Part shown: one piece after another, positions 8,051-64,000 of the stretch
Position numbering within the stretch: the first letter of the stretch is position 1
Layout of the letters: each line of letters opens with the position of its first letter
Origin: an uncultured virus (IMG/VR IMGVR_UViG_3300009785_000024)
Taxonomy: Duplodnaviria > Heunggongvirae > Uroviricota > Caudoviricetes
Length of the DNA: 64,000 bases
IMG/VR virus record: IMGVR_UViG_3300009785_000024
Strand: one strand, 5' to 3'
Program-made: the position numbers and the translations under genes
Notes under the pieces: generated by a model
What the model was told of the DNA's origin: nothing
The model's input: only the letters and a program-made list of their open reading frames with translations
The model's database searches: none

Positions 8051-8056
8051 GTTCTC

Positions 8057-37006: not shown

Positions 37007-37035
37007 TTTTATTTTCCTATCTTAATTGTTCTTTA

Positions 37036-48014: not shown

Positions 48015-48425
48015 TCAGATTTTGCCATCATATCTAATTTCTTTTTCATAATAGTCTCTAATATCAGGTATCATTCCCATTTGTTCATCTTTAGGAAACG
48101 CTTTTATGATTGGGTCATAAATGTGTTCCTTTCCTTTATATACTTCAAAGTATGGGTCATTGCCAAATAACAAGTCCTTGTCGTTTAACAAATCGTAAAA
48201 CTTATCACCATAATCTCTCTCTATCCACTTTGCATAACATATCGCCACACAATAACTCTTTGCTGGATAGATAAATCTTTCGACTTGTTCTACCCAATGT
48301 CTTTTCGCATTAAGAATAATATCATTATCTTCCCATATAAGATATATCTCCTTATCATTCAATGTATCTTTATGAGTAGGATTTAATCTATGATATACTT
48401 CTTGTTTGAGTTTCCATTCTCTCAT
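48015..48425 (-). CDS. Hypothetical protein, last gene of the radical SAM cluster
   Basis: Overlapping-coupled ORF; YPAKSY and DPYF motifs of unknown function. Confidence 0.65.
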   Translation of the reverse strand: MREWKLKQEVYHRLNPTHKDTLNDKEIYLIWEDNDIILNAKRHWVEQVERFIYPAKSYCVAICYAKWIERDYGDKFYDLLNDKDLLFGNDPYFEVYKGKEHIYDPIIKAFPKDEQMGMIPDIRDYYEKEIRYDGKI

Positions 48426-49182
48426 AACTTATATACTCCACATTCTTACATTCATTCCATTCCGGAATATTAACATTTAACATATTCTGTCTATTTACTT
48501 TATAAAACTTTACCGAATGATACGACTTGAAGAGTTGACGCCATTGTAATATCCAATTTTGTAAGTAATATTGACTAGGGTGTTTATCAGACTTGTAATA
48601 AGGTTGTCCAGCATATATGTTATTAAATTTATTTGACATACTATATATGTCGTGTCCTATTAGGTAAACTTCTTTCAATTCTGCTACTTCTTTACAAGCA
48701 ACAAAACCACTTGCAGGACCTGTTGCCCAAGTTAACTCGTCACCACCGTCAACTAAATCTGTAAAACTTTTTACTTTATCACCTGTCAACCAACTAATGT
48801 TGACCATATTCTTTCCTGTTTCTTTATCATTGTATCCGTGCAAAACAAAACTATTAGAACCTACTCTTTGATTTTCTACAAGTAAACCTGAATTCCTAAT
48901 TGCTCTTATATGTCTATACCCAGGAAAGAAACCATTTACCATATTCTCGTAATGTTCGTGTGGTACAGGATTCCAATCTCTAAAATAACATTTAGCCGTA
49001 TAACTATAACCTGAATGATAAATGCTGTGCATAACAGGATGGTCCATTGCAACTAAAATGTCAGGTGCAAAATCTTTGTACAGATTATTACAACCTAAGA
49101 TAACACCTCGTCCTTGAATAGTAGAAAATTTAAAACCTTTTCTACTTTGACCATTGCCTATAAGAAACGCTCTATTTGCCAT
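48388..49182 (-). CDS. DUF115/MptE-like (sialyltransferase-like Rossmann fold) protein
   Basis: AFLIGNG.SR, GCN.LY....PD.LVA.D, TG..S, VYLIGHD. Confidence 0.6.
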   Translation of the reverse strand: MANRAFLIGNGQSRKGFKFSTIQGRGVILGCNNLYKDFAPDILVAMDHPVMHSIYHSGYSYTAKCYFRDWNPVPHEHYENMVNGFFPGYRHIRAIRNSGLLVENQRVGSNSFVLHGYNDKETGKNMVNISWLTGDKVKSFTDLVDGGDELTWATGPASGFVACKEVAELKEVYLIGHDIYSMSNKFNNIYAGQPYYKSDKHPSQYYLQNWILQWRQLFKSYHSVKFYKVNRQNMLNVNIPEWNECKNVEYISYERMETQTRSIS

Positions 49183-50143
49183 ATCTAAAACTATAAGTAT
49201 CTAACAGATACCTATATCCATTGCAACCATCTTTTAGAGTTTTAACATATCTATAGTGTTCAGTTAAACATCTACCTAAATATTCACACTTACGACATAT
49301 ATCAGAAATATCTTGTTCTTTCTCTTTTTGACACCATACTTCGTAATCAGCAAAACTATCAAGTTCTAAAAAATACTCATTATCATCTTTATCAAAATCT
49401 AATACAGCAAATTTACCATTAGGTGTAATATATAAGTGGTCATCACTATATGCGTTGTATTGATGATTAAGAGAATCTTTTATGTTCTCTTCATTAATAA
49501 ATGCAAATTTATTTTGCTGATATCCTTCTCTTGTTTTTACACTTTTAAATTCTTCTATCATCTTTATTATAAAGTCTTCAAAGTCAGCGTGTGTCGCACC
49601 TAATTGATTTGCTTGATTTGTACTATAAGGTTTAATTTCAAATCCTTTAAAGTTTTTATTATCTACACCTAATTTAATCATCTTTGACCAAATACTTTGT
49701 GTTGATATTTTCATAACTTCTGGTGTTGCCAACATTAAAACAGAAAACTCAACAGGCAAAGTTCTCATATTATCATAAACTTGTTCGTGTTTCTCTCTGG
49801 TCTCCATATCATAACTAACACTTATAAAATAATCAGGATTCATAAACTCACTTCTTACCATAGATAAGTTTGTGTTTATATTAATCTTGTCTTTGTAATA
49901 TATCTTAATTGCGTTAGTAATCTTTTCTAGGTTGTCTTCTTTTAATACACCTATCTCACCACCATATAAATCAATGTGTTCTATGTCTCTATGAGTTTGT
50001 ACTTCATTTAATAGTTCACTTAATTTAAAGTGGTCAATACATTTATTATCACCTAATTGGTCAGGCGTAAGATAACACCAATTACATCTAAAATTACAAA
50101 AATAAGATGGATTGATTGATAGATTAATTTTCCGCTTCGTCAT
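49172..50143 (-). CDS. Radical SAM protein with reduced SPASM-like C-terminus
   Basis: CNFRCNWC, YGGE, NTNLS; C-terminal CRKC-x5-C-x3-H...C. Confidence 0.9.
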   Translation of the reverse strand: MTKRKINLSINPSYFCNFRCNWCYLTPDQLGDNKCIDHFKLSELLNEVQTHRDIEHIDLYGGEIGVLKEDNLEKITNAIKIYYKDKININTNLSMVRSEFMNPDYFISVSYDMETREKHEQVYDNMRTLPVEFSVLMLATPEVMKISTQSIWSKMIKLGVDNKNFKGFEIKPYSTNQANQLGATHADFEDFIIKMIEEFKSVKTREGYQQNKFAFINEENIKDSLNHQYNAYSDDHLYITPNGKFAVLDFDKDDNEYFLELDSFADYEVWCQKEKEQDISDICRKCEYLGRCLTEHYRYVKTLKDGCNGYRYLLDTYSFRYGK

Positions 50144-50684
50144 AATTCAATTCCTCAATAGACTTTAATAACATTCTTTTACTTCTACTAAACAAAATAT
50201 TTCTTAAAATTGTTTCTTTTTCAAATAGTCCTATCCATAGATAATGATAGTCAATATGATTTCTCATAAACAATCTATTCAGTTCAGCATACTCTTGTTC
50301 TTTATCTAAAGTGTAATCTACTCGTTCTAATAGTTCACCCTTTACATTTGCTTGTTGTTCTTTTATTTTATATGATATACCAGATATATGTTTTGTTTTA
50401 TTAATGATATCTGTTATTCTATCTAATTTGTTTTTACCACCTAACGCCAACATTATATAAAATGGCATATGGTGTTTCTTTGTAAAATGTCCTTCGCAAC
50501 TTGATATTGGAAGAAAACCTTTTCTAATAAATTCATGGCAATGAGGTAATACACCTTTCTCAACTTCAATGTCAAAGTCTTTGTCAAATGGACTTACTGA
50601 TAGAGCTAGATACCCATTTGAATAATCTAAATCTTGTTCTTGTGAGGCGTGTATTCTGCCGTTTTCAAATTTTTTATTTTTCAT
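50124..50684 (-). CDS. Hypothetical protein with SSCEGH motif
   Basis: G..PISSCEGH, weakly reminiscent of the TYW3-like SSC.G motif. Confidence 0.55.
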   Translation of the reverse strand: MKNKKFENGRIHASQEQDLDYSNGYLALSVSPFDKDFDIEVEKGVLPHCHEFIRKGFLPISSCEGHFTKKHHMPFYIMLALGGKNKLDRITDIINKTKHISGISYKIKEQQANVKGELLERVDYTLDKEQEYAELNRLFMRNHIDYHYLWIGLFEKETILRNILFSRSKRMLLKSIEELNYDEAEN

Positions 50685-51226
50685 ATATTATAATTAAAAC
50701 ATCCTACAATTCGTTCATTGTTAATTAATTTAAATTTACCAACTTTGTGTTCCCATACTTTACTATGATTTAAAAATATTAAATCGTTCTTACCTGGATA
50801 TAACCAACAAGACAATGACTTTGTTTGTTTATGTCTTACTGATAAAGAACCACCTTGTTCTTCATTACAGGCATTTGTAAAGTACATTAGTATAGCAATG
50901 TTAGCTCCTTCTTTCAAGTCATTGTGCCATAGTGTACTTTCATAGTCTACACCATTGACAATGTTTGGTCGTCCGTGTAATTCGTATTTACTAGACACCT
51001 TACTAATATATTTATCACCCAAATATTTGTGGGTTGTGGCGAGTGCGTGTGCTACCTTTTCAGTATGTACAGCAATCGTATACTCTTTATCTGTTTCTAC
51101 AAAAGGTATTTGTATACCTTCAAAGAATTTAAATGGTGCAAGGTCTTTATGTGGCCACACTCCATTTATTACCAGATTTGATAAATCGTGTTCACCCCTC
51201 ACTTGTCCATCTCCATTTAATTGCAA
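50681..51226 (-). CDS. 2OG-Fe(II) oxygenase
   Basis: WHND..ILMY..GG.L..HKV..ER; the true start may be GTG at 51202. Confidence 0.75.
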   Translation of the reverse strand: MQLNGDGQVRGEHDLSNLVINGVWPHKDLAPFKFFEGIQIPFVETDKEYTIAVHTEKVAHALATTHKYLGDKYISKVSSKYELHGRPNIVNGVDYESTLWHNDLKEGANIAILMYFTNACNEEQGGSLSVRHKQTKSLSCWLYPGKNDLIFLNHSKVWEHKVGKFKLINNERIVGCFNYNI

Positions 51227-51656
51227 GTCTTGTCTTTTCTCCCCAATAAGGCATTGCCCTATGTACTAAATGAGAGTCCATAATAAACATTGCGTTTTGT
51301 CTAAAGTCATATGTCTTATCTTCAACTTGTATTTGTCCACCTTTATTTAAATCACCTTGTAGATATAATATAATAGTCTTCTCTCCTTTTACATCGCTGT
51401 CTGTATGAAAACCTATAATATTCTTTTCTTCGTTTTTACTATTTACAGAAATAACATATCTAACAATACAATGTTTTATGTCAGGTACATTTAATTTACA
51501 AATACTATCTACCCAATCCCAGTCGTCTGGTAATTTCTTGTGAACATTCTTCTCATAGATAGGATATTCTTTACCTAGATTACCTAGTTCAGCAATCATA
51601 TGATTGAGTTCTAAACTTGTCATTACATTATTCTTAACTAACATATTCTCTCTCAT
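51192..51656 (-). CDS. 2OG-Fe(II) oxygenase
   Basis: FHTD..TIILYL..GG..HRA..R. Confidence 0.78.
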   Translation of the reverse strand: MRENMLVKNNVMTSLELNHMIAELGNLGKEYPIYEKNVHKKLPDDWDWVDSICKLNVPDIKHCIVRYVISVNSKNEEKNIIGFHTDSDVKGEKTIILYLQGDLNKGGQIQVEDKTYDFRQNAMFIMDSHLVHRAMPYWGEKTRLAIKWRWTSEG

Positions 51657-52728
51657 AAGGTGTCATTTCTATATGTGATTTATTATTTGCAATCAAAATA
51701 TCTTTTCCAATTCTTTTCATCTTCTCACAATGTTTCTCTACAACTCCTGCCTCTTTATAATCTTTCACGGTCTTTCTACAACCATTACATATGTTAAACA
51801 TAGGACAACTATAGCAACTTTTCTTCATTGTAGATAAATTTAAGTCATCTTGTAAAGGTGTAAAAAACTTACCTTTCATTTCTTCTTCAAAGTCTATCGC
51901 TTTGTCTTTATCATCACCAAATGCACCACAACTATAGTAGTCACCATCTGGTTGTAAACATCTTATACCTTCATCACATTTTCTACTTAACGGACAACTT
52001 GTAGCAGTATCATTTATTGCTAACATCATCTGTCTAGTATTAAACTCCCAAGGTGCTAGACCTGCCTTATAAATCTCTACATACTTCTCATATATATCTG
52101 ATAACAAAAACGGCTCTTTTTGTTCGCCACTTGCCATTGCATAATTCAATTTACATTCTACACCTGTCTTCTCTTCTCTCCAGAAGTTATGTAATGTGCC
52201 TTCAGGTATTTTCTGTTCAGACATCTTCTTTGCAAGTTCAACATTCTTTATTGCGTTGTGTTCATTCTCTCTTGTAATAACGGATATAAAGTCTGGTCTA
52301 TAACCACAATGTTCTAACATTGCGTCTGAACACTTATAAAAGTCCTCTTCTGTAAATTCAGAATAGTCACCTTTTAATCTACCACCACCATATTGAAAAG
52401 AAGTTGTGATACCAACTCTTTCGTTATTAAATAAGTCAACCCACTTACTAGGTTTCTTATAGAACGGCCATAAGTTTGTCGTTAATGCAAGTGAAGTAGT
52501 ATATTCTCTTTCGTCTAACCAATCAATAATCTTCCAATAGTAATTAGGTTCCATCATTAATGGGTCACCACCATTTACTATGATTGTTTTTGTTTCTGGG
52601 AATCTTTCTAAAAAACGAAATATCTGGTCATGTTTTAACCAGTTCTTTTTCTCATCTGTAAGCTGCGTACTAGAACAAAATGAGCATTTGAAATTACAAA
52701 GTTCAGTAGGTTTAATTATTAAATCCAT
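51634..52728 (-). CDS. Radical SAM/SPASM protein
   Basis: IKPTELCNFKCSFC, GGDPL; C..C..PDG.YYSC and CYSC-x5-C-x2-C...C. Confidence 0.92.
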   Translation of the reverse strand: MDLIIKPTELCNFKCSFCSSTQLTDEKKNWLKHDQIFRFLERFPETKTIIVNGGDPLMMEPNYYWKIIDWLDEREYTTSLALTTNLWPFYKKPSKWVDLFNNERVGITTSFQYGGGRLKGDYSEFTEEDFYKCSDAMLEHCGYRPDFISVITRENEHNAIKNVELAKKMSEQKIPEGTLHNFWREEKTGVECKLNYAMASGEQKEPFLLSDIYEKYVEIYKAGLAPWEFNTRQMMLAINDTATSCPLSRKCDEGIRCLQPDGDYYSCGAFGDDKDKAIDFEEEMKGKFFTPLQDDLNLSTMKKSCYSCPMFNICNGCRKTVKDYKEAGVVEKHCEKMKRIGKDILIANNKSHIEMTPYEREYVS

Positions 52729-53378
52729 TTTCCTATCCAGTTCAATCCTGTAGTAGATTCTTTATTTCTAATCCAGTAATCTTTTAGTTTACCTTCTTTA
52801 ACTTTGTCAAAACCAAACTGCCACATTATTTCTCTATGATATGGTTCTTTCTGTGCTCTCATTTGATTCATTGTCAGGTGTAACCAATCAAAGTAAGTAC
52901 CAGACGGACATAATATATCTCTACCTTTAAATATGTTTATCGTATCACACCACATTTGTCTAATTAGTTTTCTGTTTTCTGTTGGAGGTCTGTTCTTCAT
53001 GTATCCTGCATATTTTAAAGAACCGACTATAACATACTCATTATAGATATGAAACATACCTACGCCCTTAATATAAGTGCTAGGCGTACCATTTTGAACC
53101 CATTGTCTCTCGCCTTTTGTTTTTTGTGCAATCTCGTATAGTTCAGGATCCTCTTCTTTCTTGCCTAACCATAAAAACATATGTGCTCGTCTACCATCTA
53201 TTCTAGGAAGATATGGTTTCTCAACAGGAAAGTAATCTAGTTGTACTTCGATATGTTTAGGAAAATTATAGCCTAATTTAGTTTGCGATATAGTTTCGCT
53301 GTACTCGTACATCTTCGATATATCGGTGCGTAAGCTTGTAAACACATTCATCCAACTCCTCCTTGTATCTATAATCAT
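52719..53378 (-). CDS. Hypothetical protein (start possibly 53312)
   Basis: Long ORF coupled to flanking radical SAM genes; no recognisable motif. Confidence 0.6.
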   Translation of the reverse strand: MIIDTRRSWMNVFTSLRTDISKMYEYSETISQTKLGYNFPKHIEVQLDYFPVEKPYLPRIDGRRAHMFLWLGKKEEDPELYEIAQKTKGERQWVQNGTPSTYIKGVGMFHIYNEYVIVGSLKYAGYMKNRPPTENRKLIRQMWCDTINIFKGRDILCPSGTYFDWLHLTMNQMRAQKEPYHREIMWQFGFDKVKEGKLKDYWIRNKESTTGLNWIGKWI

Positions 53379-54330
53379 GGTTCATAAAACAGCCAAGTGT
53401 ACATCTATCTAAAAATTCACAACTACTACAATTATACTTCTCTAGGAAAGAGTTTTCTATTATACTATTGTCTCTTGGTTTAATGGGCGACTTGTATTGA
53501 CTTATATCTTGTTCTTCTTGTACAAGGTTACCACATTGACATAATGTACCATCTGCTAATACAAGTTTTGAAACTCTACAACTTGCATAATTCTTTTTGT
53601 TAAATATCCAATCTCTAACAGGATGAACATTAGGATATTTGTCAACACAATGTTTAAAAAACTTTAATAATAGTTCATCGCCAGGCATATTAAACTTTGC
53701 GTGTTCATCTGGCATATAATAATCAAAGTAAATATACTTACCTTGTTTATACAGATAGTCAAAGTATTCATCACCTTCATTTAAATAAAAGTTAATATTA
53801 GGCTTTGTAAGTAAACAAGAAAAACAGGTTACTTCATCACCCCAAAATTCTACATTAGATTTAAATATCTCAAAGTCTTTTTTATTAAATCTACCTCGTG
53901 GGTCATAACTTGTTGTAAGTCTACTAGGTATATCTTCTTCTCTGGACCAAGTGAGTAAGTCCATAATAAGTTCATTACCTTCATCTGAGGTAACCAAGTT
54001 AGACACCCAATTGATTGAAAATTCTTTATTGTGTTTTTGACATATCTTTTTTATGCCTTTTACTAGAAGTTTATATCCGTCATTTAAATCTTTGTTATAG
54101 ATTGCAGGTGCAAAGACTTCGCCACCCATAATATTAAAGGTGACCTTCATATACATTTCTTTTGAGATAAATTTTTCTATAGAAGGAAGTTTGTCAACCA
54201 CATTATCAACACCGATTTTATTGTCGTGGTTCTGCCAACAGAAATTACAACGCAAATTACAAAATTCAAATAAATGAATAGTGTACTCTTGCTCTGGGTC
54301 TCTTTTGGGGTCTATTAAAAACTCTCGCAT
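53278..54330 (-). CDS. Radical SAM/SPASM protein
   Basis: CNLRCNFC, MGGE; ASC..DG..CQC and CSSC-x5-C-x3-C...C. Confidence 0.92.
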   Translation of the reverse strand: MREFLIDPKRDPEQEYTIHLFEFCNLRCNFCWQNHDNKIGVDNVVDKLPSIEKFISKEMYMKVTFNIMGGEVFAPAIYNKDLNDGYKLLVKGIKKICQKHNKEFSINWVSNLVTSDEGNELIMDLLTWSREEDIPSRLTTSYDPRGRFNKKDFEIFKSNVEFWGDEVTCFSCLLTKPNINFYLNEGDEYFDYLYKQGKYIYFDYYMPDEHAKFNMPGDELLLKFFKHCVDKYPNVHPVRDWIFNKKNYASCRVSKLVLADGTLCQCGNLVQEEQDISQYKSPIKPRDNSIIENSFLEKYNCSSCEFLDRCTLGCFMNHDYRYKEELDECVYKLTHRYIEDVRVQRNYIAN

Positions 54331-54338: not shown

Positions 54339-55454
54339 CTATGAGTTTGCGAATAGTCTGTATTTTCCTAGTTTGTCTGTATCGTTAGATTTCTTTAATG
54401 AGAAGAGATATTGTAAAAATGTATAATTAATATTTCCAATATCAAATCTAGGAATAAAAGATAGACTAGATGGACTATTCACGGTTTCAGTTATAATTGT
54501 ATCAAAGTCAGTAGAAGATAAACTTGAAGCACAAGCTTTATCTAAATGGTTCATAAAGTAATCAGGATCCGGAGAGTTTTGGAAATCATATAGGTCTTTA
54601 ATTAATGCTTTCAATGCAGTTTGTTTGTCTGTTGAAAGACCGTCAATGTTTGCAATATTTACAGCACCTACATTTGCAGTAGGTTTTTGCGTAAATACAT
54701 CTTCGTCAGCAAATGGTGCTAATGGTGTAATACCTGAAAATGGATTGTCATTATTTAAATCAACATCATCACTAGTATAACCTAATGCAGTTTGTTGATT
54801 AGTATTCAAAAGATTTAGAGCAGCACCTTCTCTACTATCTGTTAATACTTCTTTATAAAATCTTTTTAAGAATAAATGCCAAGTAGACAATAAGTTTGCT
54901 TGGTGAGTATCAGCACCTGCAAAGTATTCGCCTAATAATAATTCAATTGAGAAATTTAAATTAAGAGCTTTAATTCTATCTAAATCAAGTGTAGGTAATA
55001 CATTAAAATATCCTGCAACATCTCCTAGACCAGCATTAATTTTTGTTAGCGCTAGCGTGTGAGTAGGTTGCAATTGTGTATTTGCAATAATTTTTTCGTG
55101 GTGTAAATTAATATCTAAAAACTTCTGTACTGCTGTTTGGTCAACAAATGGTAACATAGTTTTTAACCAGGTTACTGATAAGTTTAAGTATGCTTCACTA
55201 TCGCAGTAAATAATAACTTTGGTACCTAGAGTACTTTGTTTTAATTTTACATCTTCAAAGAAACCAGTTAAGTCAGTATACTTACCTGCCATTGCATTAA
55301 CATTGTGTGAATAGTTAATTAAAGTTCCTCTGTATGTAGTTTGCAGTTCCTGGTGCATTTCATTACCAGTTTCTGCTGATATTACATATCTGTTTGTATG
55401 ACAATCAATTGAATCGTCAAACGCTAAATAGACTTTATTAAATAAGTGTAGCAT
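54339..55454 (-). CDS. Hypothetical protein of the radical SAM cluster
   Basis: 371-aa ORF in operon order; no confident motif (KVIIYCD). Confidence 0.65.
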   Translation of the reverse strand: MLHLFNKVYLAFDDSIDCHTNRYVISAETGNEMHQELQTTYRGTLINYSHNVNAMAGKYTDLTGFFEDVKLKQSTLGTKVIIYCDSEAYLNLSVTWLKTMLPFVDQTAVQKFLDINLHHEKIIANTQLQPTHTLALTKINAGLGDVAGYFNVLPTLDLDRIKALNLNFSIELLLGEYFAGADTHQANLLSTWHLFLKRFYKEVLTDSREGAALNLLNTNQQTALGYTSDDVDLNNDNPFSGITPLAPFADEDVFTQKPTANVGAVNIANIDGLSTDKQTALKALIKDLYDFQNSPDPDYFMNHLDKACASSLSSTDFDTIITETVNSPSSLSFIPRFDIGNINYTFLQYLFSLKKSNDTDKLGKYRLFANS

Positions 55455-55455
55455 A

Positions 55456-56121
55456 TTAGTTTTTCTCTTTACCTTTTAAATATTCTTTTGTATCAAATTT
55501 ACCTTCGGCAATTGCCCAAGTCATTAAGAATAGTGGATTACTTTCTGTCGCCCAATATTCAAATAAAGATTTACCTTTAAACATATAATCTTTAAAGTAC
55601 TTCGTATAGTTCTTAACAATACCTTCTTTTTGTATTTGATAATAACTATAAAATTCTTTGTGTTTTAATAATGAAACAAAGTTAATACCTCTAACATCTT
55701 CTGTCTCGTCTTTAGGATAACTCTCAACAAATTCATTAAAAGCACCTTCACCAACGATTGACATATTATACAATGGTAGACTTTCTAATTTGCCTTCCCA
55801 CTTGTCAAGTATTTCTTTGTTCTTTTCTATAACACTCTTATATTTATCTGTCTTTGACAACCCCTTGTGTTCAAATAATACAGCGATTATTTCTTTTTCT
55901 AATTTAGGTATATTTACTAACATTTGTGTGTTAAGATATTCACTAATTAGTTCTTCGTCCATATTTAATATATCACAAGGTATATCTAAATTACTTAAAT
56001 AGGTTAGAAACTGAGCACCTTTTAATGTGCTGTTTTCGTAATCAATAAGATAACTTTCTGTCTTATCTTCAAAGTATTTTTTTAAGTCTTTCAATTCAAT
56101 CGGTACAATAGTATTAATCAT
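55456..56121 (-). CDS. Hypothetical protein of the radical SAM cluster
   Basis: Start overlaps the stop of the candidate precursor gene (TAATG). Confidence 0.65.
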   Translation of the reverse strand: MINTIVPIELKDLKKYFEDKTESYLIDYENSTLKGAQFLTYLSNLDIPCDILNMDEELISEYLNTQMLVNIPKLEKEIIAVLFEHKGLSKTDKYKSVIEKNKEILDKWEGKLESLPLYNMSIVGEGAFNEFVESYPKDETEDVRGINFVSLLKHKEFYSYYQIQKEGIVKNYTKYFKDYMFKGKSLFEYWATESNPLFLMTWAIAEGKFDTKEYLKGKEKN

Positions 56122-56894
56122 TATCTTCTTCCTCTACTTCCGTGACAACTACTATGACAGCTACTATGACATATAGTTTTTGTTAATGTATAAGTGTTAC
56201 CTCTTTCAGTAGAATATGCGTTTGCAAGGCTCGACATAAACGATTCTAAATTTGTATCGTCAATTGTTTGACCAGATTGTAAACTACTAGGTTGTGATGG
56301 ATTTAATGTTGTTCTTTGTGCAGTTGTTAAGTGTGCAATTTGTGTATCCGAATATTGTGTTCCTGCACCTGTCATACTAACTATAGCGTATGTATTTTTG
56401 ATATTAGTATAATTATTCATTTCTGCTTTTAGTGTACCGTAAATATTGTTTGCAGTAATTACTGAACCTGCATTACCGATATTAGAACCTGTGATACCAA
56501 TTGATACAGCACTTATTACTGCTAAAGTATTAACCGTACCTACAGCACCTGAAGAAGTGCCTGATATAATATCGTTTTGTAAGAATCCTGTTTGACCAGC
56601 ACCTGGATTAATTGTTCTTAATTTTAATACATTGCTAGAATAACTAACTACGATACCAGTTGTTGCAGTTATCGTAGAGTTAACCGTTTCACCTGCTGTA
56701 TAAGTTCCAGTCACACCTGTTAGTGTTAATTCAAATCCGTCAACAACACCACCAAAATCAGCAGAAGTAAATGAAGAGTGTCCTGGTAGATTATCAGTAC
56801 CCCATACAATATGGTGGTCTGCTACATCTGTTACCAGTTCTTCAAATCTATCAACTATATTTTGACTTGTTATCGGGTTGTTTAAAGTTACCAT
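56121..56894 (-). CDS. Virion-like protein with C-terminal (CHxS)3-RGRR tail; candidate radical SAM substrate
   Basis: T/S/G-rich body with a tail-type module (YTAGETV...ATTG.V; F...D.I.G.SSGA.GTV); ends TKTICHSSCHSSCHGSRGRR. Confidence 0.8.
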   Translation of the reverse strand: MVTLNNPITSQNIVDRFEELVTDVADHHIVWGTDNLPGHSSFTSADFGGVVDGFELTLTGVTGTYTAGETVNSTITATTGIVVSYSSNVLKLRTINPGAGQTGFLQNDIISGTSSGAVGTVNTLAVISAVSIGITGSNIGNAGSVITANNIYGTLKAEMNNYTNIKNTYAIVSMTGAGTQYSDTQIAHLTTAQRTTLNPSQPSSLQSGQTIDDTNLESFMSSLANAYSTERGNTYTLTKTICHSSCHSSCHGSRGRR

Positions 56895-57919
56895 TTCGCC
56901 TCACTTTGTTTTTTTAAGTGTTTCATAAGAGATTTAGGAGCGCCACATATGTCGTCTTGCCATGCTAATTGGTGACAATCGCCACCACAATACTTAAATA
57001 CTTCACACTCAAAGCATTTAGGATTTCTTGCTACTTCACAAGCAACATTTTCTAATCTCTTAGGACTATTTATAAGTTCTACTAGAGGGTCATCTATAGT
57101 TCCAAAATTAAACTCGGGAGCTGCATTAGGACAACCACCTATTGTGCCAGTTGCGTTAAGTGTAAATAGTTTTTGTTCACAATCTCGGCAGAAAGTGCCT
57201 TCTTTTGTTGAACCAGTATCAAATTTTGAGTAAATTGTTTCAAAAAACTCATTATCAAACCAATCTCTTGTGTTATACTGAATAGATTGCTCGTGCATTT
57301 TTAAAAACCACTTATCTTGTTCTATATTTCTAGGAAATATTTCTGGATGCAAGTTTGCATTACCATTTCCAGTCAATCTTTCAAGTGCCATTTCTTTTAC
57401 ACCTAAATCTTTGACCCATTTAAGTAATTCAATAGGTTCAATTCTAATTGTGTCTTTGGTTACTGATATGAAGAGTTTAATATCAACACCTTCACTAATT
57501 AAAGTCTCTACATTCTTACGCCATAAGTTTGCTTGTTTCTCATTTGCAAATCTTATGTTAGGATCCCAACTAGTTCCACATCTATTTTTAAGTGGACCTT
57601 TAATGAAGTCAATGTGTTCTTGTTTTAGTTTAAATGTTAAGTTAGAAGTTATGCCCATTGATTGTTGAATCCACAAATCTTTTGTGTTCTCATAGACATA
57701 TTGCATTTCAGACACAGGAACTAAAAACGGTTCGCCACCGTGTAGTTCTAAATGTGCTGTATCGTGTTTGTGAAAATTGTATTTTCTGAAATCTTGTAAC
57801 CACTTAATGGTTTTATCTGGATTCCAATAGACTTTAGGACCATTTGAACCTGAAGTAAAACAATGTTTACAATTCAAGTTGCAGGTTTCGGTTGTTTTTA
57901 AATAAAACATCCAATTCAT
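56888..57919 (-). CDS. Radical SAM/SPASM protein
   Basis: KTTETCNLNCKHC, HGGEPFL; CRDC..G.IGGC and CFEC-x5-C-x3-C...C. Likely start MNWMFY (TAATG overlap). Confidence 0.93.
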   Translation of the reverse strand: MNWMFYLKTTETCNLNCKHCFTSGSNGPKVYWNPDKTIKWLQDFRKYNFHKHDTAHLELHGGEPFLVPVSEMQYVYENTKDLWIQQSMGITSNLTFKLKQEHIDFIKGPLKNRCGTSWDPNIRFANEKQANLWRKNVETLISEGVDIKLFISVTKDTIRIEPIELLKWVKDLGVKEMALERLTGNGNANLHPEIFPRNIEQDKWFLKMHEQSIQYNTRDWFDNEFFETIYSKFDTGSTKEGTFCRDCEQKLFTLNATGTIGGCPNAAPEFNFGTIDDPLVELINSPKRLENVACEVARNPKCFECEVFKYCGGDCHQLAWQDDICGAPKSLMKHLKKQSEAKW

Positions 57920-58398
57920 TATATAACTCCTATACTTAACCCCCAAGTATCTGCTTCGTTTTCAACATAATGTTTTACACCTTGTTCTATGAATATTCCT
58001 TCATCATCATATACTGGTTTAATAACACCATCTAAAGATACTTTCTTTTTGCCTTTGACAACATATAAGTAAACATCTTTATCATCTTTATGTTCTTTAA
58101 AACTAATACCTGGTTTCTGATTTACAAATAAATGAATATCTTGTCTTTTCTTTCCTGTGATATTCAATACTACTTCGTCTAAAACTTCTTTTAACCAGGC
58201 TACATCTTCTAAGCCTTCCACCTTAATAGTTTTAAATCTATCGTACTCTCTTATCCATTCTCCATAAGACATATGGTCTTTAACCTCACGGTCAAGTCCT
58301 TCTTCGTCTATGTAAAATAGTTGTCTTGCTTCGTATCTAGTGTGTGATTGGATTTCTTCTTTTAATCTGGAAATCCATAAGATTGTTTGTTCGTCCAT
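57919..58398 (-). CDS. JmjC/cupin-type oxygenase
   Basis: SF.EHKD..DV....V.G.K...IFI..GVKH (HxD...H). Confidence 0.72.
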   Translation of the reverse strand: MDEQTILWISRLKEEIQSHTRYEARQLFYIDEEGLDREVKDHMSYGEWIREYDRFKTIKVEGLEDVAWLKEVLDEVVLNITGKKRQDIHLFVNQKPGISFKEHKDDKDVYLYVVKGKKKVSLDGVIKPVYDDEGIFIEQGVKHYVENEADTWGLSIGVI

Positions 58399-58409
58399 AA
58401 TATATCTCC

Positions 58410-59711
58410 TTATTTACCAACAACAGCTTCTATAACTCTCTCTTCGTTAGAATCGTCATTGACTAAACTTTTTCCAATTAATGCACCGTTTCTTGGTTCT
58501 GCTTCAGCTCTAGCACATCCTGCAATACTACAAGATACTAACATATCGCCTTTTCTTACAGGACCACATACTCTTACTGGTACTCTTCCTGTCATTGCTA
58601 CCGTAGCGGTAACACCTTCTAAACTGCCATTCATAATAAAGGCAGGTTTTTCTGATTGAACACCAATAACTTTTGTGCAATGGTTTTCTGTACATATAGT
58701 TACCTCAGCTGTGCCACCTATACATAAGACGGTACCTACTGGATATTCTCTATCAGATTTATACTTTTCTGCCAAGTCAGCATATCTTGCTGATGTAGCA
58801 GTTGTTGTTAAAATATTTGTTGATGGATTGTAATATAATCCTGAATCTGCTTTTAGAACATTTGAACCTGAAGTACTATCAGCAAAAGTTAAATATCTTG
58901 TTGCGTTTTGAGTATTTTCAGTAGTTAAATCTACGGCACTTGATAATGAAGCAGTACCTGTAATAGTATTTGCAACTAAAGTGTCAACCGTTAATGTTGC
59001 AGAATTAAATCCTGATAGTTTTGCAATCGTAACCGAGTTATCAGCAATTTGTGAAGTACTTACAGCATTATCTGCTATCATAGTTTGTGTAACCGTATTC
59101 GTATCACCAGAAGTAATAAGAGTACCACTAGCGTCAGGTAGTGTAATTACATTATCTTGTGATGGGTCGTCTACTCGTAATGTAGTTTCAAAACTATTAG
59201 GAGTAGCACCTTCAAATTGCATTGAAGCACCATTGATTGTTAATCCAGCACCAACAAGTGTACCACCGGCAGATATACCACCTGTTGTGTTTAATTGTTC
59301 GTTACCAAAATCAATTGTACCACTTGCAGAAGTAATTGAAGAAGTACCAATCTGTATGTTCGCAATCTCAGCTGTTGTTGCAACATCAATTGTTGATAGA
59401 CCAGTTAAGTTTGTATTTAATCCGATTGTTAATGTATCTGGATTTGATACCGTTGCAGTAAGACCTGTACCACTCGCTACGGTTAATGTGTTACCAGAGG
59501 CAATACCTTGTACATTCGTTCCATCTGTTAATGTGAAACCAGCAGCTGCAATTGCAATACCATTGATTTCGTTAACAGCACCAATTACAGAAGTAGCAGA
59601 TAAAGTAGCATCCAGAGTGGCAATATCACCAAAATCTGAGGACGCTAATGCGTTAAATTCTATTCGTAATTTATCTAAACTATCTGTTTCTGTTACCTGT
59701 CTTACAGCCAT
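58410..59711 (-). CDS. Tail fibre protein with C-terminal ADLAE-type (autoproteolytic chaperone-like) domain
   Basis: T/S/G-rich body; YADLAEKY..G.V..IGG..EV, VA..GRVPV.V.G.V.KGD.LV. Confidence 0.8.
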   Translation of the reverse strand: MAVRQVTETDSLDKLRIEFNALASSDFGDIATLDATLSATSVIGAVNEINGIAIAAAGFTLTDGTNVQGIASGNTLTVASGTGLTATVSNPDTLTIGLNTNLTGLSTIDVATTAEIANIQIGTSSITSASGTIDFGNEQLNTTGGISAGGTLVGAGLTINGASMQFEGATPNSFETTLRVDDPSQDNVITLPDASGTLITSGDTNTVTQTMIADNAVSTSQIADNSVTIAKLSGFNSATLTVDTLVANTITGTASLSSAVDLTTENTQNATRYLTFADSTSGSNVLKADSGLYYNPSTNILTTTATSARYADLAEKYKSDREYPVGTVLCIGGTAEVTICTENHCTKVIGVQSEKPAFIMNGSLEGVTATVAMTGRVPVRVCGPVRKGDMLVSCSIAGCARAEAEPRNGALIGKSLVNDDSNEERVIEAVVGK

Positions 59712-59713
59712 TT

Positions 59714-59941
59714 TTATTTATCCTTACACATATTTTTTATTAAATCTTTTATTTCAAACAACTCTTGCTTTAAACTATTTATCTCTCTACACATTGACTT
59801 CATTTGGTTAAGATTACCTTTTCGCATTTGTATTCTTTTCATATACAACTCATATTCGCTTGAGTTTGTATTAATGATACCACCTGATTCCGTATCTCTT
59901 ATTAAAAATTCTTGTTGTTCAACTTTCAGAAATCTTGTCAT
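59714..59941 (-). CDS. Conserved small T4-like protein
   Basis: L.RD..SG.IINT...Y and EIN.LK.EL.EIK.L, typically found after VrlC-like genes. Confidence 0.7.
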   Translation of the reverse strand: MTRFLKVEQQEFLIRDTESGGIINTNSSEYELYMKRIQMRKGNLNQMKSMCREINSLKQELFEIKDLIKNMCKDK

Positions 59942-59945
59942 AATT

Positions 59946-62900
59946 TTAAATCGCTAATGCGATACCTCTCATGTCTCGTAAGATTGGTGGGTAACTAGTA
60001 TTAGTTCCTTTTAGTACAATCTTAATCTGAAACGCAGTAAAGGCGTTCAATTGTTCTTGTGAATATTGATATTCTTTAAAATCAAAATCATCTTTAGATT
60101 TTGAAACTGAATTATCTTCAACACCACCAGCATTGAAAGGTGTCCAGTCAATGTCTCCGATAGTTCTAACTTCATCAGCACTTGTTGTTCTAAAGTAAAC
60201 TTCAACTTTAGAAGTATCTCTAATAACTTGTGTTAATCTAATATCTAATGCAGTTGAGTTATTAATAAGTGTAACCGGTTTCGTAATATATTGAGACGCA
60301 GTTGATGAACCTTTTGCAGTAGTTTCAGGAACATAGTTAGGTGTATTACCACTAGTTGGATTATTTAATCTATTTGCAACACAGAAAGCACTACTTCTAT
60401 CTAAATCAATTACTGGAGACAACTTATTATTTGTCGTTGATAATTTCATAATAGTATAGAAAGATTTTTGTCCTGCCATTCTAGTTGTTTCATTTGGTCC
60501 AGACATAACAGCCTGTGGCGCAGTAAAGTAAATATCGTCTACTAATGTAACCGATTGTCTATTACTTTCAGAAACTAATGAATATGGTGTTTGAGCACCG
60601 TGAAGTGACTTACTAGATGTTGTTCTAATAAACGGTTCAATGTTTGTACCAGGAACGGTCATAGTTTGTAGACCACCTAGATTTAATACATCAAATTGTT
60701 TATTACCGGTAACAAGTATTGTTGTGCCTCCGATATCACCATCAGTATTTGCAGTTCCTGATGTTGTAATATCAAAACTATCTAATGTAATATTAGAAAT
60801 AGAAGTATATGTTCCGTTTATATCTGTCGAAGCAATACCGTTAAGAGTTCCTGAAGGAACACCAGATATAGTAACCACAGAATTAGTATCGTGCATATTG
60901 TGATTTGAATAGAAAACTCTAATTACACCTGAACCGTTTGTAGTTCTTAATCCGTTTTGTTTAATATTTTGTGCCGGTAGTTCTTTACTTCCTAAGTGAA
61001 CCGTACCTACGACATTACTAAACTCACATCTTTTCATTGTGAATTTCATATCTTCGTTTTGTTCAGCAGTCCAAGTTGAACCGTTTTGAGATTTGAACAT
61101 AACACCAGCATATGGTTGTTTAGATATTGTTCTATTAGAACCAATATTTGTTTCTCCTAATCTACCCACATACATATTGTAATCATTTGAGTTAGACAAT
61201 ACCGTCATTGCATATTCAACTTTATCTTGTATGTATATTGGTGCAGGGAATGTAAATGTTGTTTTAACTGAACCGTCTGTACTTGTATTTACAGCAGTTG
61301 GATTTAATGAAACTTCACCAAATGGTAATAATTTACTTCCAGGATAACCATTAACCGTATTTCTAATTTGAACGGTTACAGGAATGTTTGCGTCTTTTGT
61401 TGAAAAGAATAAATCAACAGAAGATATGAATACTCCACCAGGTTCATCTGTCATAAATGTTTGAGATAATGGATCAACCCAACCAACAATTTGCGTACCT
61501 GCTCTTGTAGATGTTTGTAAAATGGTTTGTGAATCTGTAACCGTTTGTTGTACACCTCTAAATTCTCTTGTAGAAACAATTGTGTCTCTAACGGTATTTA
61601 ATAATCCTCTTGCAATATATTCAGCATTAGCCGCAGTAGCAACAGCAGCTGCGTCTTGCGAGTTAGTAGAAGAAGAAGTTAATCTAAATGTTCTTTCTCC
61701 AGTTCTCCATCTAGGATTTGTATTTACTTTAGGATCCGGTATTGTGAATACTCCTTCAACAGCACCAGCACCGTCAGTAATTAAGTTACCACCAACTGAA
61801 CCACCGTCTGGTGTACAATAAGTAGCAATATTTACATTATCAAAGAATGGAAATACTCTTGTATTTGGTTTTAATCTTGTAGCTTTAAATGCAACATCAC
61901 GGCTTCTGATAAATGGTACAAATGCAACACTAACAACTCTATCTCCCATAGATGTTCTTATCGTTTGAGGTACGGCAGTTGTTGTAATACCTGACCTACT
62001 TTGGTTAACTTGGTTGATAGAAGTAGTTTCTGTTCTTTGTACAATAGCACGACCACGCATAAATCTTCCACCTGAAGCTGTAGTTGAAGATGTTAATGCT
62101 CTTCCAGTCCAGTTAGTTTGCCATTCATTCCATACCGTTCCAAGTGAGATTTCATCTTGGTCTGTAATACCACTTTGTCTTTGTAATTGGTCCCACGCAC
62201 CTGTAGTTGAGTTAACTACTAAATCAGGAGTTCTTTGTGTTTCTCTCCATTCATCACTTGATGGTGTTAAATCTATTGTTCCCATCCAACTGAAAATTGC
62301 AAATGGGTTAACATTAATTGCTTTAGAAGCAAAAGGTTGATTTATTAAATCTATTTCTGTAAATGGTAATGTTAGTACATCACCAGACTTTTGATAGTTT
62401 GCAGCCGCTCTGTCAGTAGCAACTAATGTTGTACCGTCTTCGTCAATCTCTTCTAGTTTTACAGCGTCTTGGTTAAACAAAGGTCTTAATTCGCCTTTTG
62501 CATAATCAATCGAACATCTGTATGAACCGTTGGTTACTTCACCGATACCGTGACCGTTAAAGTTGTCTACAACAAATCCATTTTTAAATCTATCGAAACC
62601 ATCAGCGTCTTGTATCTGTAAAGATTGAGCCGCAGTTTCTAATAGAGACAATTGAGTGTAATATTCAATTCTATCAATCTTCTTATCAATAGCACCAATA
62701 TCTCTCATTGTATATCTTCTATTTTCTACCGTCTCGTATGATACATCATCTGGTGACAATGTGTACGGTGGTAAAGAAAGAGTGTATAGGTGCATTGCGT
62801 TATCAATAGAACCTGGCTCTTGTGGTACATTTGCTTCAGCACCTTTAAGTACTTCAAAGGCACCTTCTTTATTTAAGAATAGTTTATCAACTCTTCCTTT

Positions 62901-64000
62901 GTAAAATTCGTGGTCTGTGGTCACATTTGTTTTAAACTTAACAACTTCAATTGAAGCTGTTGCAGGATAAGTTCTATCTTGTGTACCAGAGTTAATTGTA
63001 CTTGCGTCATCTACTCTAGGTCTAAAGTCTAATGTGTCTCTTAATTGATAAGTTTCTCCTGAAGTATCAGAAGTATAACTAGGTATTGCTGTGTAATCAA
63101 TAATACCAGAATAACTATCTACACTAAAGAAGTCACCAGAACCGTGTGTGAAATAATTAAATGTAATTAATAATTGTCCACTTGGTGCCAAGCTACCTTC
63201 TTTTCTTACTAGTCTAGCAATATCATAGAAGTTATCTCTTTGTCCACTATCAAGTGTAAATCTTGTTGTGATGTCTGTATCACTTGCAGTTGGTGTTGTA
63301 CTAAAGTCAGCCGCCATTTTAACAGATACTAATTGATATCCGTCAGCAACACCTAATGAAATATGATTTGCAGTTGCAGCTGCTGAAGTTGTAATAGTTG
63401 CTGTCGAGTTTGATACTAAATTTTTTGATTTTTCGTTTTGTGCAGATTTAGATATAGTCGCAATAATTTTTACTTCGTGGTCAGAGTGATTAGCACCAAA
63501 ATCTAAAGTTAATGAACGACCTACTGGAGAACCACCTAATGTGAAACAAGCATTACCTTCATGGTTATTACCTGTTGTAGATATCTTGTCACCAGCTGTA
63601 CCAGCAGAAGATGAACCACCTGCTGACATAATAGTTACCGAATAATCTTGTTCTTGTTGTGCAACAAAAGTTTCGCCTGTGTTTGCAGTAATTGTAATAT
63701 CACCAGTTGAAGATAAAGAACCTACAAATGTTTTTCTTACAATAAATGATGTATCAGAAATACCAGAGTTGTTTGCTGTTTTTAATGTTTTAATTGTTGT
63801 GTAAGGTAAAGAGAACAACGAAATGTTTTTACTTGCGTCTTGTAATTTTCCTCTTCTTCTTATAATCAATGAGTTTGAAACGGCAGTTGTTGAAATTGCA
63901 CTATCAAGTCTGATTGAAGATGAATTGACAATGTTAATTACCGTTCTAGTTAAAATAGTACCAGTCGTTGTTGCAAACTGAACACTATCTCCTACTTTTA
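59946..64000 (-). CDS. Large VrlC/DUF4815-like virion structural protein (5' end outside the window)
   Basis: LDFRP, NRRYTMRDIG..RIEYYTQLSLLE, RFKNGFVVDNF, NVNPF, DPLSQTF, FKSQNGSTW. The frame stays open to the window edge. Confidence 0.88.
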   Translation of the reverse strand, partial: KVGDSVQFATTTGTILTRTVINIVNSSSIRLDSAISTTAVSNSLIIRRRGKLQDASKNISLFSLPYTTIKTLKTANNSGISDTSFIVRKTFVGSLSSTGDITITANTGETFVAQQEQDYSVTIMSAGGSSSAGTAGDKISTTGNNHEGNACFTLGGSPVGRSLTLDFGANHSDHEVKIIATISKSAQNEKSKNLVSNSTATITTSAAATANHISLGVADGYQLVSVKMAADFSTTPTASDTDITTRFTLDSGQRDNFYDIARLVRKEGSLAPSGQLLITFNYFTHGSGDFFSVDSYSGIIDYTAIPSYTSDTSGETYQLRDTLDFRPRVDDASTINSGTQDRTYPATASIEVVKFKTNVTTDHEFYKGRVDKLFLNKEGAFEVLKGAEANVPQEPGSIDNAMHLYTLSLPPYTLSPDDVSYETVENRRYTMRDIGAIDKKIDRIEYYTQLSLLETAAQSLQIQDADGFDRFKNGFVVDNFNGHGIGEVTNGSYRCSIDYAKGELRPLFNQDAVKLEEIDEDGTTLVATDRAAANYQKSGDVLTLPFTEIDLINQPFASKAINVNPFAIFSWMGTIDLTPSSDEWRETQRTPDLVVNSTTGAWDQLQRQSGITDQDEISLGTVWNEWQTNWTGRALTSSTTASGGRFMRGRAIVQRTETTSINQVNQSRSGITTTAVPQTIRTSMGDRVVSVAFVPFIRSRDVAFKATRLKPNTRVFPFFDNVNIATYCTPDGGSVGGNLITDGAGAVEGVFTIPDPKVNTNPRWRTGERTFRLTSSSTNSQDAAAVATAANAEYIARGLLNTVRDTIVSTREFRGVQQTVTDSQTILQTSTRAGTQIVGWVDPLSQTFMTDEPGGVFISSVDLFFSTKDANIPVTVQIRNTVNGYPGSKLLPFGEVSLNPTAVNTSTDGSVKTTFTFPAPIYIQDKVEYAMTVLSNSNDYNMYVGRLGETNIGSNRTISKQPYAGVMFKSQNGSTWTAEQNEDMKFTMKRCEFSNVVGTVHLGSKELPAQNIKQNGLRTTNGSGVIRVFYSNHNMHDTNSVVTISGVPSGTLNGIASTDINGTYTSISNITLDSFDITTSGTANTDGDIGGTTILVTGNKQFDVLNLGGLQTMTVPGTNIEPFIRTTSSKSLHGAQTPYSLVSESNRQSVTLVDDIYFTAPQAVMSGPNETTRMAGQKSFYTIMKLSTTNNKLSPVIDLDRSSAFCVANRLNNPTSGNTPNYVPETTAKGSSTASQYITKPVTLINNSTALDIRLTQVIRDTSKVEVYFRTTSADEVRTIGDIDWTPFNAGGVEDNSVSKSKDDFDFKEYQYSQEQLNAFTAFQIKIVLKGTNTSYPPILRDMRGIALAI

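Follow-up and report, generated by a model that had tools for sequence, protein, structure and literature searches.

Introduction

Radical S-adenosylmethionine (radical-SAM) enzymes are known to mature peptides, cofactors and sulfatases and, since 2026, also one bacterial anti-phage effector. Sulfatases present the consensus C/S-x-P/A-x-R, e.g. C-x-P-S-R, and in the QhpD/QhpC system a SPASM radical-SAM enzyme joins Cys to Asp/Glu by several thioethers within a subunit of quinohemoprotein amine dehydrogenase. Enzymes of the triceptide type (XyeB, YhhB, FxsB, HaaB/HtkB) use an aromatic residue, His included, followed by any residue and then by the residue that becomes linked at its beta-carbon. 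According to the available part of its description, the HXS defence relies on the radical-SAM enzymes HxsB and HxsC, which mature with HxsD the HxsA protein of ~214 amino acids (aa); a +8 Da change was mapped to S-H-R-S-S in HxsA, the Ser before the His, the His itself and the Ser after it being required (PMC13128918). Here we report on a 64-kb stretch of DNA from the IMG/VR virus record IMGVR_UViG_3300009785_000024, called the window below, i.e. the whole stretch that was analysed. The window (about 31-38% G+C, all genes on one strand) is the late/structural region of a T4-like myovirus, with terminase, sheath, portal, scaffold, major head protein and tail fibres, and it encodes a 257-aa protein ending in a short Cys-His-rich element, the tail. 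The gene of this protein stands beside that of a radical-SAM enzyme, rSAM1, within a set of genes, the kit, that also encodes three further radical-SAM enzymes (rSAM2-4), a cupin and a 221-aa partner protein. On balance, we think it probable that the neighbouring radical-SAM enzyme(s) take this tail, carried on a protein of the baseplate or fibre region, as their substrate.

Literature searches returned no report of radical-SAM maturation for a virus-particle protein, and no paper describing the tail or assigning a function to the kit. In the available text of papers on RSL2-type phages, SURPRISE13 and FLC6, radical-SAM and cupin genes are merely listed.

The tail is the conserved end of a protein family

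On the minus strand, 56121..56171 encodes CHSSCHSSCHGSRGRR plus a stop, the reverse complement being TGTCATAGTAGC TGTCATAGTAGT TGTCACGGAAGT AGAGGAAGAAGA TAA. This interval corresponds to the last 16 codons and the stop of the open reading frame (ORF) 56121..56894, and its translation is C-H-S-S-C-H-S-S-C-H-G-S-R-G-R-R-stop. The first-pass annotation of this DNA had read here three tandem Cys-His-x-Ser units with a basic RGRR end, had seen a 12-bp DNA repeat beneath them and had placed in them the only cysteines of the protein. Sequence and translation agree with the units and the basic end, Tandem Repeats Finder recovers the repeat (period 12, 2.4 copies, 94% matches, 56143-56171), and Cys 242, 246 and 250 are indeed the sole cysteines of the 257-aa protein. 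The pattern TGYCAY-N6-TGYCAY-N6-TGYCAY occurs a single time in the window and a single time in the nearest virus record, G001, while it appears in 0 of 100 dinucleotide-preserving shuffles.

Codon usage was counted in 100 distinct tails taken from other loci. Both codons serve for Cys (TGT 56, TGC 44) and for His (CAT 63, CAC 37), Ser is encoded by both AGY and TCN, and six codons are found for Arg. This synonymous variation indicates that selection acts on the residues and that the 12-bp DNA repeat itself is not conserved. Ser occupies the fourth position of the units in 91, 83 and 86 of the 100 tails, so that His-x-Ser is kept in all three, and the third position of the last unit is variable (G 67, S 22, others 11).

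A word-indexed search with the tail protein yielded 292 proteins at E<=0.001. Among the 120 of their C-termini that were listed, 112 end in CHxxCHxxCHxxRxRR; 8 do not, and these records (P0018, P0027, P0029-P0032, P0064, P0105) are truncated or chimeric. In an 88-sequence alignment with a mean column identity of 44%, the invariant columns are C242, H243, C246, H247, C250, H251, R254, R256 and R257. The tail protein also matches the unannotated PHROG family phrog_35144 (E 2.7e-6), its residues 211-257 aligning to profile positions 141-186 of 186.

As these searches were possibly seeded by the tail itself, a profile was built from 23 sequences with the tail cut off and run against 1.84 billion representatives. 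It returned 304 cluster representatives (50% identity) at E<=0.001. Within the best 150 of the 304, 129 carry the strict CHxxCHxxCHxxRxRR ending and 9 more have at least three CHxx units followed by a different ending, so that homologues found without the tail keep it, and the first-pass reading of the tail as a core peptide is supported in that it is the conserved, core-like element. The remaining 12 of the best 150 comprise four truncated proteins (three of 75-91 aa, and P0157, which stops mid-motif), the chimera P0027, P0249 (228 aa) with an unrelated Gly-rich end, and six variants with fewer Cys that still have C-H at the start and R-x-R-R at the end of the tail.

Other endings were also observed. 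One member (L079:4961-5491) terminates in C-H-S-N-C-H-G-S-C-H-G-S-L-stop, the next gene being overlapped in TAATG, and endings of the types ...CHGSI or ...CHGSL are found in P0237, P0248 and P0260.

The tail travels with radical-SAM genes in viruses and cultured phages

We collected 79 IMG/VR loci. An ORF ending in the motif is present at 76 of them; L079 ends in C-H-G-S-L, and the other two are cut by contig ends. rSAM1 lies directly upstream of the tail gene at 66 of the 70 viral loci with room for it, and the partner directly downstream at 69 of 71. At the other 4 of the 70 loci, the tail gene is in two ORFs and rSAM1 stands before the first one. These four loci (L024, L025, L026 and L060, ~7052-8420) encode a 308-aa piece and a 140-aa tail piece in ORFs 19 nucleotides (nt) apart, the 308-aa N-terminal piece carrying a larger insertion; a frameshift, an assembly error or a real split could account for this arrangement. 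Across the IMG/VR loci, the synteny of the kit persists down to about 30% identity of the tail protein.

A tblastn search with rSAM1 alone led to 15 records of 12 cultured phages at 41-51% identity, all jumbo phages with hosts in Ralstonia, Burkholderia, Agrobacterium, Sinorhizobium and Pseudomonas. Six of these 12 phages were examined, and in 6/6 the gene next after the rSAM1 orthologue encodes the tail; in RSL2 and Atu_ph07, orthologues of the cupin, the partner and all four radical-SAM enzymes are present in unchanged order. Radical-SAM neighbours, which the first-pass annotation had expected beside homologues of the tail protein, are thus found at the viral loci as well as in the cultured phages. 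Megablast of 55400-58400 and tblastn of the tail protein and of P0117 gave no match in the phage collection. The tblastn blanks are false negatives, because tail-bearing orthologues exist in that collection; the bodies are too divergent and the tail is of low complexity.

The first-pass annotation had noted that the tail gene directly follows a SPASM enzyme gene, and this is confirmed by a 7-nt overlap (ATGGTAA) between rSAM1 and the tail gene and by the score of rSAM1 above the curated SPASM cut-off (TIGR04085, 33.1 bits vs 27). The cupin/rSAM1 and tail gene/partner junctions both read TAATG. Judged by these junctions, the cupin, rSAM1, the tail protein and the partner are encoded by four translationally coupled genes.

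Bacterial carriers of the kit

One genome per prokaryote species was scanned with the tail pattern, which gave 47 stretches, 39 of them with an ORF ending in the motif. The other eight (L083-L085, L087, L088, L105, L113, L116) were rejected as chance matches, having no motif-ending ORF and no kit gene. Three of the 39 loci (L090, L091, L128) look like phage contigs binned into metagenome-assembled genomes; most others belong to Bdellovibrionota or Bacteriovoracaceae, including contigs of 1.3, 2.4 and 2.8 Mb. An rSAM1-like gene is found within 6 kb of the tail at 32 of the 39 loci, in shuffled gene order, and frequently the tail is also accompanied by rSAM2-4, the partner and the 136-aa gene, again in shuffled orders. 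Taken together, the near-constancy of the tail and its linkage to the enzyme set across distant phages and bacteria point to a so far undescribed enzymatic finishing step.

The flanks of two chromosomal loci contain signal peptidase II, a matrixin-type peptidase, a phosphoesterase, a transposase and an RCC1/Big_2 protein of >1,659 aa, and no phage structural gene was recognisable within the 6 kb examined around them. On the Bacteriovoracaceae chromosome (L104:1-4978), the RCC1_2 and Big_2 protein of >1,659 aa lies near the kit, as in the window. There, positions 30239-40262 encode three RCC1-repeat proteins (731, 1,367 and 1,072 aa) beside tail fibre genes, and these match the phrog 'regulator of chromosome condensation'.

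The tail itself varies among the bacterial loci, with four CHxS units in L111 and L119, a doubled motif in L110 and tandem paralogues in L089, L097, L099, L109 and L126. The doubled-motif gene (L110:3907-4266), on a contig labelled Dysosmobacter (Firmicutes), has six CHxS units and 15 Cys in 119 available residues, and it adjoins the partner, rSAM2 and rSAM3. Three loci of one Rhodobacteraceae bin (L099:3-6455, L109:3-6434, L126:1846-8316) carry two tail-bearing paralogues of 125-140 aa directly after a fibre-like gene (about 1,880 aa), a homologue of window 58410..59711, and in L099 and L109 rSAM1 lies about 5 kb beyond the pair. A fifth radical-SAM gene, 25-29% identical to rSAM1, stands directly upstream of the partner in L094, L095, L098, L103, L106, L114, L117 and other Bdellovibrionota loci, where a closer rSAM1 orthologue (41-46%) is also found.

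Genes that follow fibre genes often encode chaperones or adhesins. The tail gene lies just downstream of the fibre gene in the window, and the paralogue pairs of L099, L109 and L126 come directly after a fibre-like gene encoding 1,877 aa, so the protein could be conceived as a fibre assembly factor or adaptor whose tail is a docking or sorting signal, with radical-SAM neighbours by coincidence. We hold this to be very improbable: coincidence fails for the 6/6 cultured jumbo phages and for the 32/39 bacterial loci, and the kit stays syntenic down to 30% identity though the pelagimyophage cluster is called hypervariable in the available text of its description (PMC7029224).

A tail-bearing orthologue in virions of Agrobacterium phage Atu_ph07

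The virion proteome of Atu_ph07 (PMC6102473, Supplementary Table S5) lists Gp170 at 31.89 kDa, with 8 unique peptides and 35.16% coverage. Since this mass equals that of the translated tail-bearing gene (31.89 kDa), the gp170 numbering matches. The orthologues of rSAM4 (gp164), rSAM3 (gp165), rSAM2 (gp168), the partner (gp169), rSAM1 (gp171) and the cupin (gp172) are not in that list, which does contain the fibre homologue gp176. The protein is therefore in the particle and the kit enzymes are not.

In the same table, Gp170 is distributed over gel slices 1-9 with its abundance peak in slice 1 (top), while 29-30 kDa proteins peak in slice 8 and 75-139 kDa proteins in slices 1-2. According to the available part of the Methods (PMC6102473), the gel samples were treated at 95 C in sodium dodecyl sulfate (SDS) with ethylenediaminetetraacetic acid (EDTA). 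After this treatment at 95 C in SDS, Gp170 thus migrates much higher in the gel than its mass would predict. Two other proteins of 32-36 kDa, gp321 and gp616 (single peptide), likewise peak in the top slice (Table S5), so the anomaly of gp170 is rare but not unique.

The first-pass annotation had seen the body as a virion anchor displaying a possible receptor ligand. For the body, particle association stands in one cultured relative, Atu_ph07 (gp170); a host-specific receptor ligand is argued against by the invariance of the tail across SAR11-type, Ralstonia, Agrobacterium and Pseudomonas phages and predatory bacteria, which suggests a fixed chemical function.

Phage fibres and spikes use His-x-His metal sites on the three-fold axis (T4 gp37, P2 gpV, phi92 gp138). 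Along this line, an unmodified tail might use its three Cys and three His per chain to coordinate Zn or Fe and so staple together an oligomer or a fibre or spike tip; R-G-R-R would contact the cell envelope, and the radical-SAM enzymes would act on other structural proteins, on sugars or on a small molecule. Cys-His pairs at regular spacing are typical ligands of metals, the His are retained even in variants that lose Cys, a stable metal-stapled oligomer could give the top-slice migration of gp170, and the conserved kit proteins at 54339..55454 and 52719..53378 could be the real enzyme substrates. We nevertheless regard a purely metal-binding tail as unlikely, since it leaves unexplained both the translational coupling of the tail gene with rSAM1 and the co-travel of tail and enzymes through shuffled gene orders, and since the fourth-position Ser, kept in 83-91% of distinct tails, is needless for pure Cys/His ligands. 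Moreover, 95 C, SDS and EDTA, as given in the available Methods text, should strip most metal-dependent oligomers (PMC6102473).

The body, its insertion and the family

The AlphaFold2 (AF2) model of the tail protein has a mean predicted local distance difference test (pLDDT) score of 88.3, and the final two 10-residue blocks, i.e. the tail, score 63 and 54. In this model, the tail is the exposed, low-confidence end of an otherwise confident structure and is hence predicted to be accessible. Foldseek against the Protein Data Bank (PDB) gave no match for the model at E<=0.001. In the VIA wide search, where the core was run within the whole-protein model, the insertion of residues 52-129 was the only part matched, to 9f4a_AY (Z 7.6, root-mean-square deviation 2.3, 69 aligned). 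In BFVD, the insertion matches cyanophage structural proteins across about 70-90 columns, and the body matches predicted models of viral family members, among them Atu_ph07 gp170 (E 1.1e-4). As modelled, the insertion resembles the beta-barrels of phage baseplate and fibre proteins. The complex prediction of rSAM1 (with three 4Fe-4S clusters and SAM) and the tail protein gave no usable answer (score 0.02).

Once the tails are cut away, BLASTP at E<=1e-5 links the window body to only 3 of 43 bodies from bacteria or jumbo phages, whereas hhalign between marine and bacterial alignments lacking the tail reaches a probability of 98.9% (E 3.3e-17, 165 columns). The divergence and the homology together indicate one family in which a fast-diverging body bears a frozen tail. 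The earlier proposal of a core fused to a structural-protein body is therefore modified: there is no graft, the whole body being one family, and what stands of the structural character is the insertion with its barrel of baseplate or fibre type.

Precursors of cofactors have an invariant core, while those of antibiotics have a variable one. An invariant C-terminal core on a diverging body, surrounded by several redox enzymes (four radical-SAM enzymes, a cupin and a 2-oxoglutarate (2OG) oxygenase) for one short motif, follows the pattern of cofactor precursors, and one may imagine a precursor akin to those of cofactors or of peptides that are ribosomally synthesised and then modified post-translationally (RiPPs), in which the C-terminal residues are rebuilt and cleaved off, as for pyrroloquinoline quinone (PQQ) and mycofactocin, the body serving as leader or scaffold. 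We judge such a precursor quite improbable. The orthologue of the tail protein was found in virions with 35% peptide coverage (PMC6102473), known leaders are 10 to 20 times smaller than the body, which forms a conserved folded domain, the kit includes no conserved peptidase, and the baseplate-type beta-barrel predicted in the window version fits a structural role.

Radical-SAM enzymes and other genes of the window

The rSAM1 ORF spans 56888..57946 (-), and comparison with homologues, which share the start MNWMFY, places the likely true ATG at 57919. The enzyme has the motifs CX3CX2C, CX9-15GX4C and CX2CX5CX3C, with CNLNCKHC at ORF residues 22-29; C13, C17 and C20 are invariant in 40 homologues, as are the SPASM-pattern Cys of all clusters. 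As the conserved start puts the radical-SAM cluster at residue 13, rSAM1 is without an N-terminal recognition domain. Against Pfam PF04055 it scores 23 bits, under the gathering score of 29.5, and the closest solved chains to its profile are 8vpo and the sulfatase-maturating enzyme anSME 4k37 (E 2.9e-6).

Coordinates and supporting evidence for the kit and its surroundings are collected in Table 1. Orthologues were identified in RSL2 and Atu_ph07 for the cupin (ORF066, gp172), the partner (ORF070, gp169) and rSAM4 (ORF077, gp164). rSAM3 is 51-57% identical to its counterparts in Bdellovibrionota loci and 62% to Atu_ph07 gp165. The partner model has a pLDDT of 93.5; Foldseek against the PDB found nothing at E<=0.001, the best VIA match has Z 4.2 over residues 1-54, no known family was matched, and no PqqD-like or RiPP recognition element (RRE)-like match was seen in the fold searches, though one may still exist. 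In the ESM Atlas, neither the partner nor the 371-aa protein had a usable match. The 136-aa gene (g48015) adjoins rSAM1 in the bacterial loci L096, L102, L120 and L124. The start of the 264-aa protein, with a motif of the type F-L-I-G-N-G-Q-S, presumably recalls DUF115/MAF-type sugar transferases; no family was matched at E<=0.01.

Upstream of the kit, the structural genes in 58410..63869 also have a recorded match to phrog_473. In the available text on pelagimyophages, VrlC is the start marker of the host recognition cluster (PMC7029224).

Table 1. Position and evidence of the tail, the kit genes and the adjoining structural genes in the window
Feature	Coordinates	Strand	Viral tail loci with the gene	Evidence and remarks
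DUF4815/VrlC-like baseplate protein	59946..63869	-		PF16075 1.7e-23 and phrog matches; synteny
Small virion protein	59714..59941	-		phrog matches; synteny
Fibre-like protein	58410..59711	-		phrog matches including phrog_19602 tail fibre; homologue Atu_ph07 gp176, in virions
Cupin_2 protein	57919..58398	-	61/76	PF07883 30.9 bits vs 27.2
rSAM1, SPASM radical-SAM, 343 aa from conserved ATG	56888..57919	-		phrog_1802, TIGR04085, motifs; proposed tail maturase
Cys-His-tail protein gene, 257 aa	56121..56894	-		Conserved alpha/beta body and flexible tail; 292 homologues, AF2 model
Insertion, residues 52-129, predicted small beta-barrel	56508..56741	-		Gap vs common 177-199-aa form
C-terminal tail CHSSCHSSCHGSRGRR plus TAA	56121..56171	-		Invariant element of the family; sequence, alignment, codons, tail-less profile
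221-aa partner protein, phrog_20767	55456..56121	-		Start overlaps tail-gene stop (TAATG)
371-aa conserved protein, no family	54339..55454	-	68/76	
rSAM2, SPASM-type radical-SAM	53278..54330	-	71/76	Motifs; RSL2 ORF072, Atu_ph07 gp168
219-aa protein, variably present	52719..53378	-	34/76	
rSAM3, SPASM-type, best conserved of the four	51634..52728	-		PF04055 29.6 bits vs 29.5
154-aa protein, variably present	51192..51656	-	13/76	phrog_274 match
2OG-Fe(II) oxygenase-like protein	50681..51226	-	49/76	PF13640 25.8 bits, below gathering score 27
186-aa protein	50124..50684	-	19/76	
rSAM4, radical-SAM, reduced C-terminal Cys set	49172..50143	-	60/76	CX3CX2C, no full SPASM pattern
264-aa kit gene, phrog_30607	48388..49182	-		Follows rSAM4
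136-aa kit gene (g48015), phrog_20737	48015..48425	-	40/76	Also 10/39 bacterial tail loci

Proposed role of the tail

In the reading that we favour, the folded body of a T4-like marine myovirus protein would carry the flexible invariant tail, (Cys-His-x-Ser)x3 plus Arg-x-Arg-Arg, and the translationally coupled rSAM1 would take this tail as substrate, with rSAM2-4, the cupin, the 2OG oxygenase and the 221-aa partner probably contributing too. Side chains of Cys, His or Ser would be modified in the infected cell, prior to particle assembly, and the protein so altered would be incorporated in the baseplate or fibre region. There the product may serve as a chemically fixed device, by way of a covalent crosslink, through oxidation of Cys or Ser, or as a metal site. 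As each unit consists of Cys and then His-x-Ser, a thioether from Cys, an anSME-type oxidation of Cys or Ser and a His-centred crosslink are all possible. From the data above we infer that the enzymes have the tail as substrate, and the choice of enzyme and all details of the chemistry are likewise inferred.

Several points weigh against this reading. The link between tail and enzymes rests on gene neighbourhood, conservation and one gel anomaly, and an SDS-stable oligomer would equally explain the migration of Gp170. Some members of the family have fewer Cys, e.g. C-H-x-x-x-x-H-x-x-H-S-N-R-G-R-R (P0261, P0267), and R-x-R-R is absent from L079, P0237, P0248 and P0260, so that no single residue set is absolutely required; variants that lose Cys and keep His appear to lean slightly to a His-centred or metal role. 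Four radical-SAM enzymes exceed the need of any known single substrate, so some may act elsewhere, and the kit enzymes all fall short of the curated cut-offs for characterised maturase families. Finally, the tail was one of the two patterns used to collect the 79 IMG/VR loci and the pattern of the bacterial scan, so both sets are biased to tail-bearing genes; the rSAM1-only route to cultured phages and the tail-less profile search are free of this bias.

A bolder extension, to which we give little credence, is that the four radical-SAM enzymes make the tail a covalent device, either an inter-chain weld to itself or to a fibre or baseplate partner or a redox/metal centre, forming a 'warhead' common to T4-like phages, jumbo phages and Bdellovibrio-like predators attacking the Gram-negative envelope. 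If it were true, this would be the first radical-SAM-matured virion protein, and a cell-attack chemistry common to phages and predators.

The same kit and 16-residue tail occur in abundant marine myoviruses, in jumbo phages of plant-associated bacteria and in chromosomes of predatory bacteria. Several hundred protein clusters (304 representatives at 50% identity) could thus be explained from one cultured system, with new protein chemistry possible, and a role would be assigned to the 'radical SAM cassettes' left unexplained in pelagimyophage host recognition clusters.

Comparison with known radical-SAM systems

The first-pass annotation had related the locus to the HxsB/HxsC families and to triceptide enzymes. 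Membership in these families is not borne out, all matches lying far below the curated cut-offs. rSAM1 scores 31.7 bits against HxsB (TIGR03978, cut-off 370) and rSAM3 scores 29 bits against HxsC (TIGR03977, cut-off 267.9), the N-terminal core alone aligning in both cases; the triceptide families give 32.1 vs 445 for YhhB, 25.2 vs 370 for FxsB, 21 vs 425 for AmcB and, with rSAM3, 21.2 vs 450 for XyeB. Triceptides resemble the present case in that His-x-Ser is kept in all three tail units, and they differ in being made from short precursor peptides with leaders by a chemistry in which Cys has no role.

The anSME enzymes share with rSAM1 a SPASM architecture of ~350-370 aa without leader-recognition domain, and their target is a Cys or Ser within a full-size protein. 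Among solved chains, anSME 4k37 alone gives an end-to-end alignment to the rSAM1 profile (11-317 vs 13-333, E 2.9e-6), a likeness of shared architecture only, rSAM1 reaching 41.8 bits against TIGR03942 (cut-off 349.45). The last tail unit, C-H-G-S-R, which has Cys first, Ser fourth and Arg fifth, is loosely like C-x-P-S-R. However, the third position of the tail units holds G, S, N or other residues without ever being a conserved P or A, the tail protein is without sulfatase domain, and there are three units and four enzymes here.

QhpD is comparable in that several intra-chain crosslinks start from regularly placed Cys and the protein then joins a larger assembly, but the tail has no Asp/Glu acceptors, and a redox enzyme stands against a virion context. 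SCIFF and sactipeptide systems likewise combine SPASM enzymes with regularly spaced Cys as thioether donors. SCIFF (TIGR03974) gives 25.5 bits vs 425 and PapB (NF047865) 41.5 vs 340, the latter being among the top three NCBIfam matches of rSAM1 and aligning end to end. SCIFF/ranthipeptide substrates differ from the tail protein in being peptides of 40-50 aa, and one- or two-Cys variants exist in the tail family.

An HxsA-family substrate was considered and rejected for the tail protein: it has three His-x-Ser triplets, but these are Cys-preceded, spaced with period 4 and C-terminal, and no NCBIfam family is matched at E<=0.01. According to the available text (PMC13128918), the HXS defence resembles the kit in having a protein substrate of ~200 aa with His-Xaa-Ser units rich in basic residues, and more than one radical-SAM enzyme together with a small partner protein. 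Where HxsA has the unit S-H-R-S-S, the tail has C-H-x-S with Cys in place of the first Ser. HXS is a bacterial defence with a periplasmic effector, whereas the window kit is phage-encoded (and also found in predatory bacteria) and its protein is in virions; the invariant Cys, the extreme C-terminal position, the period of 4 and the four enzymes likewise set the tail apart from HxsA. As the cut-offs of the HXS, anSME, triceptide and SCIFF/PapB families are all missed, the kit would represent a variant form of radical-SAM protein maturation outside the named families, with HXS as the nearest known system by logic and motif.

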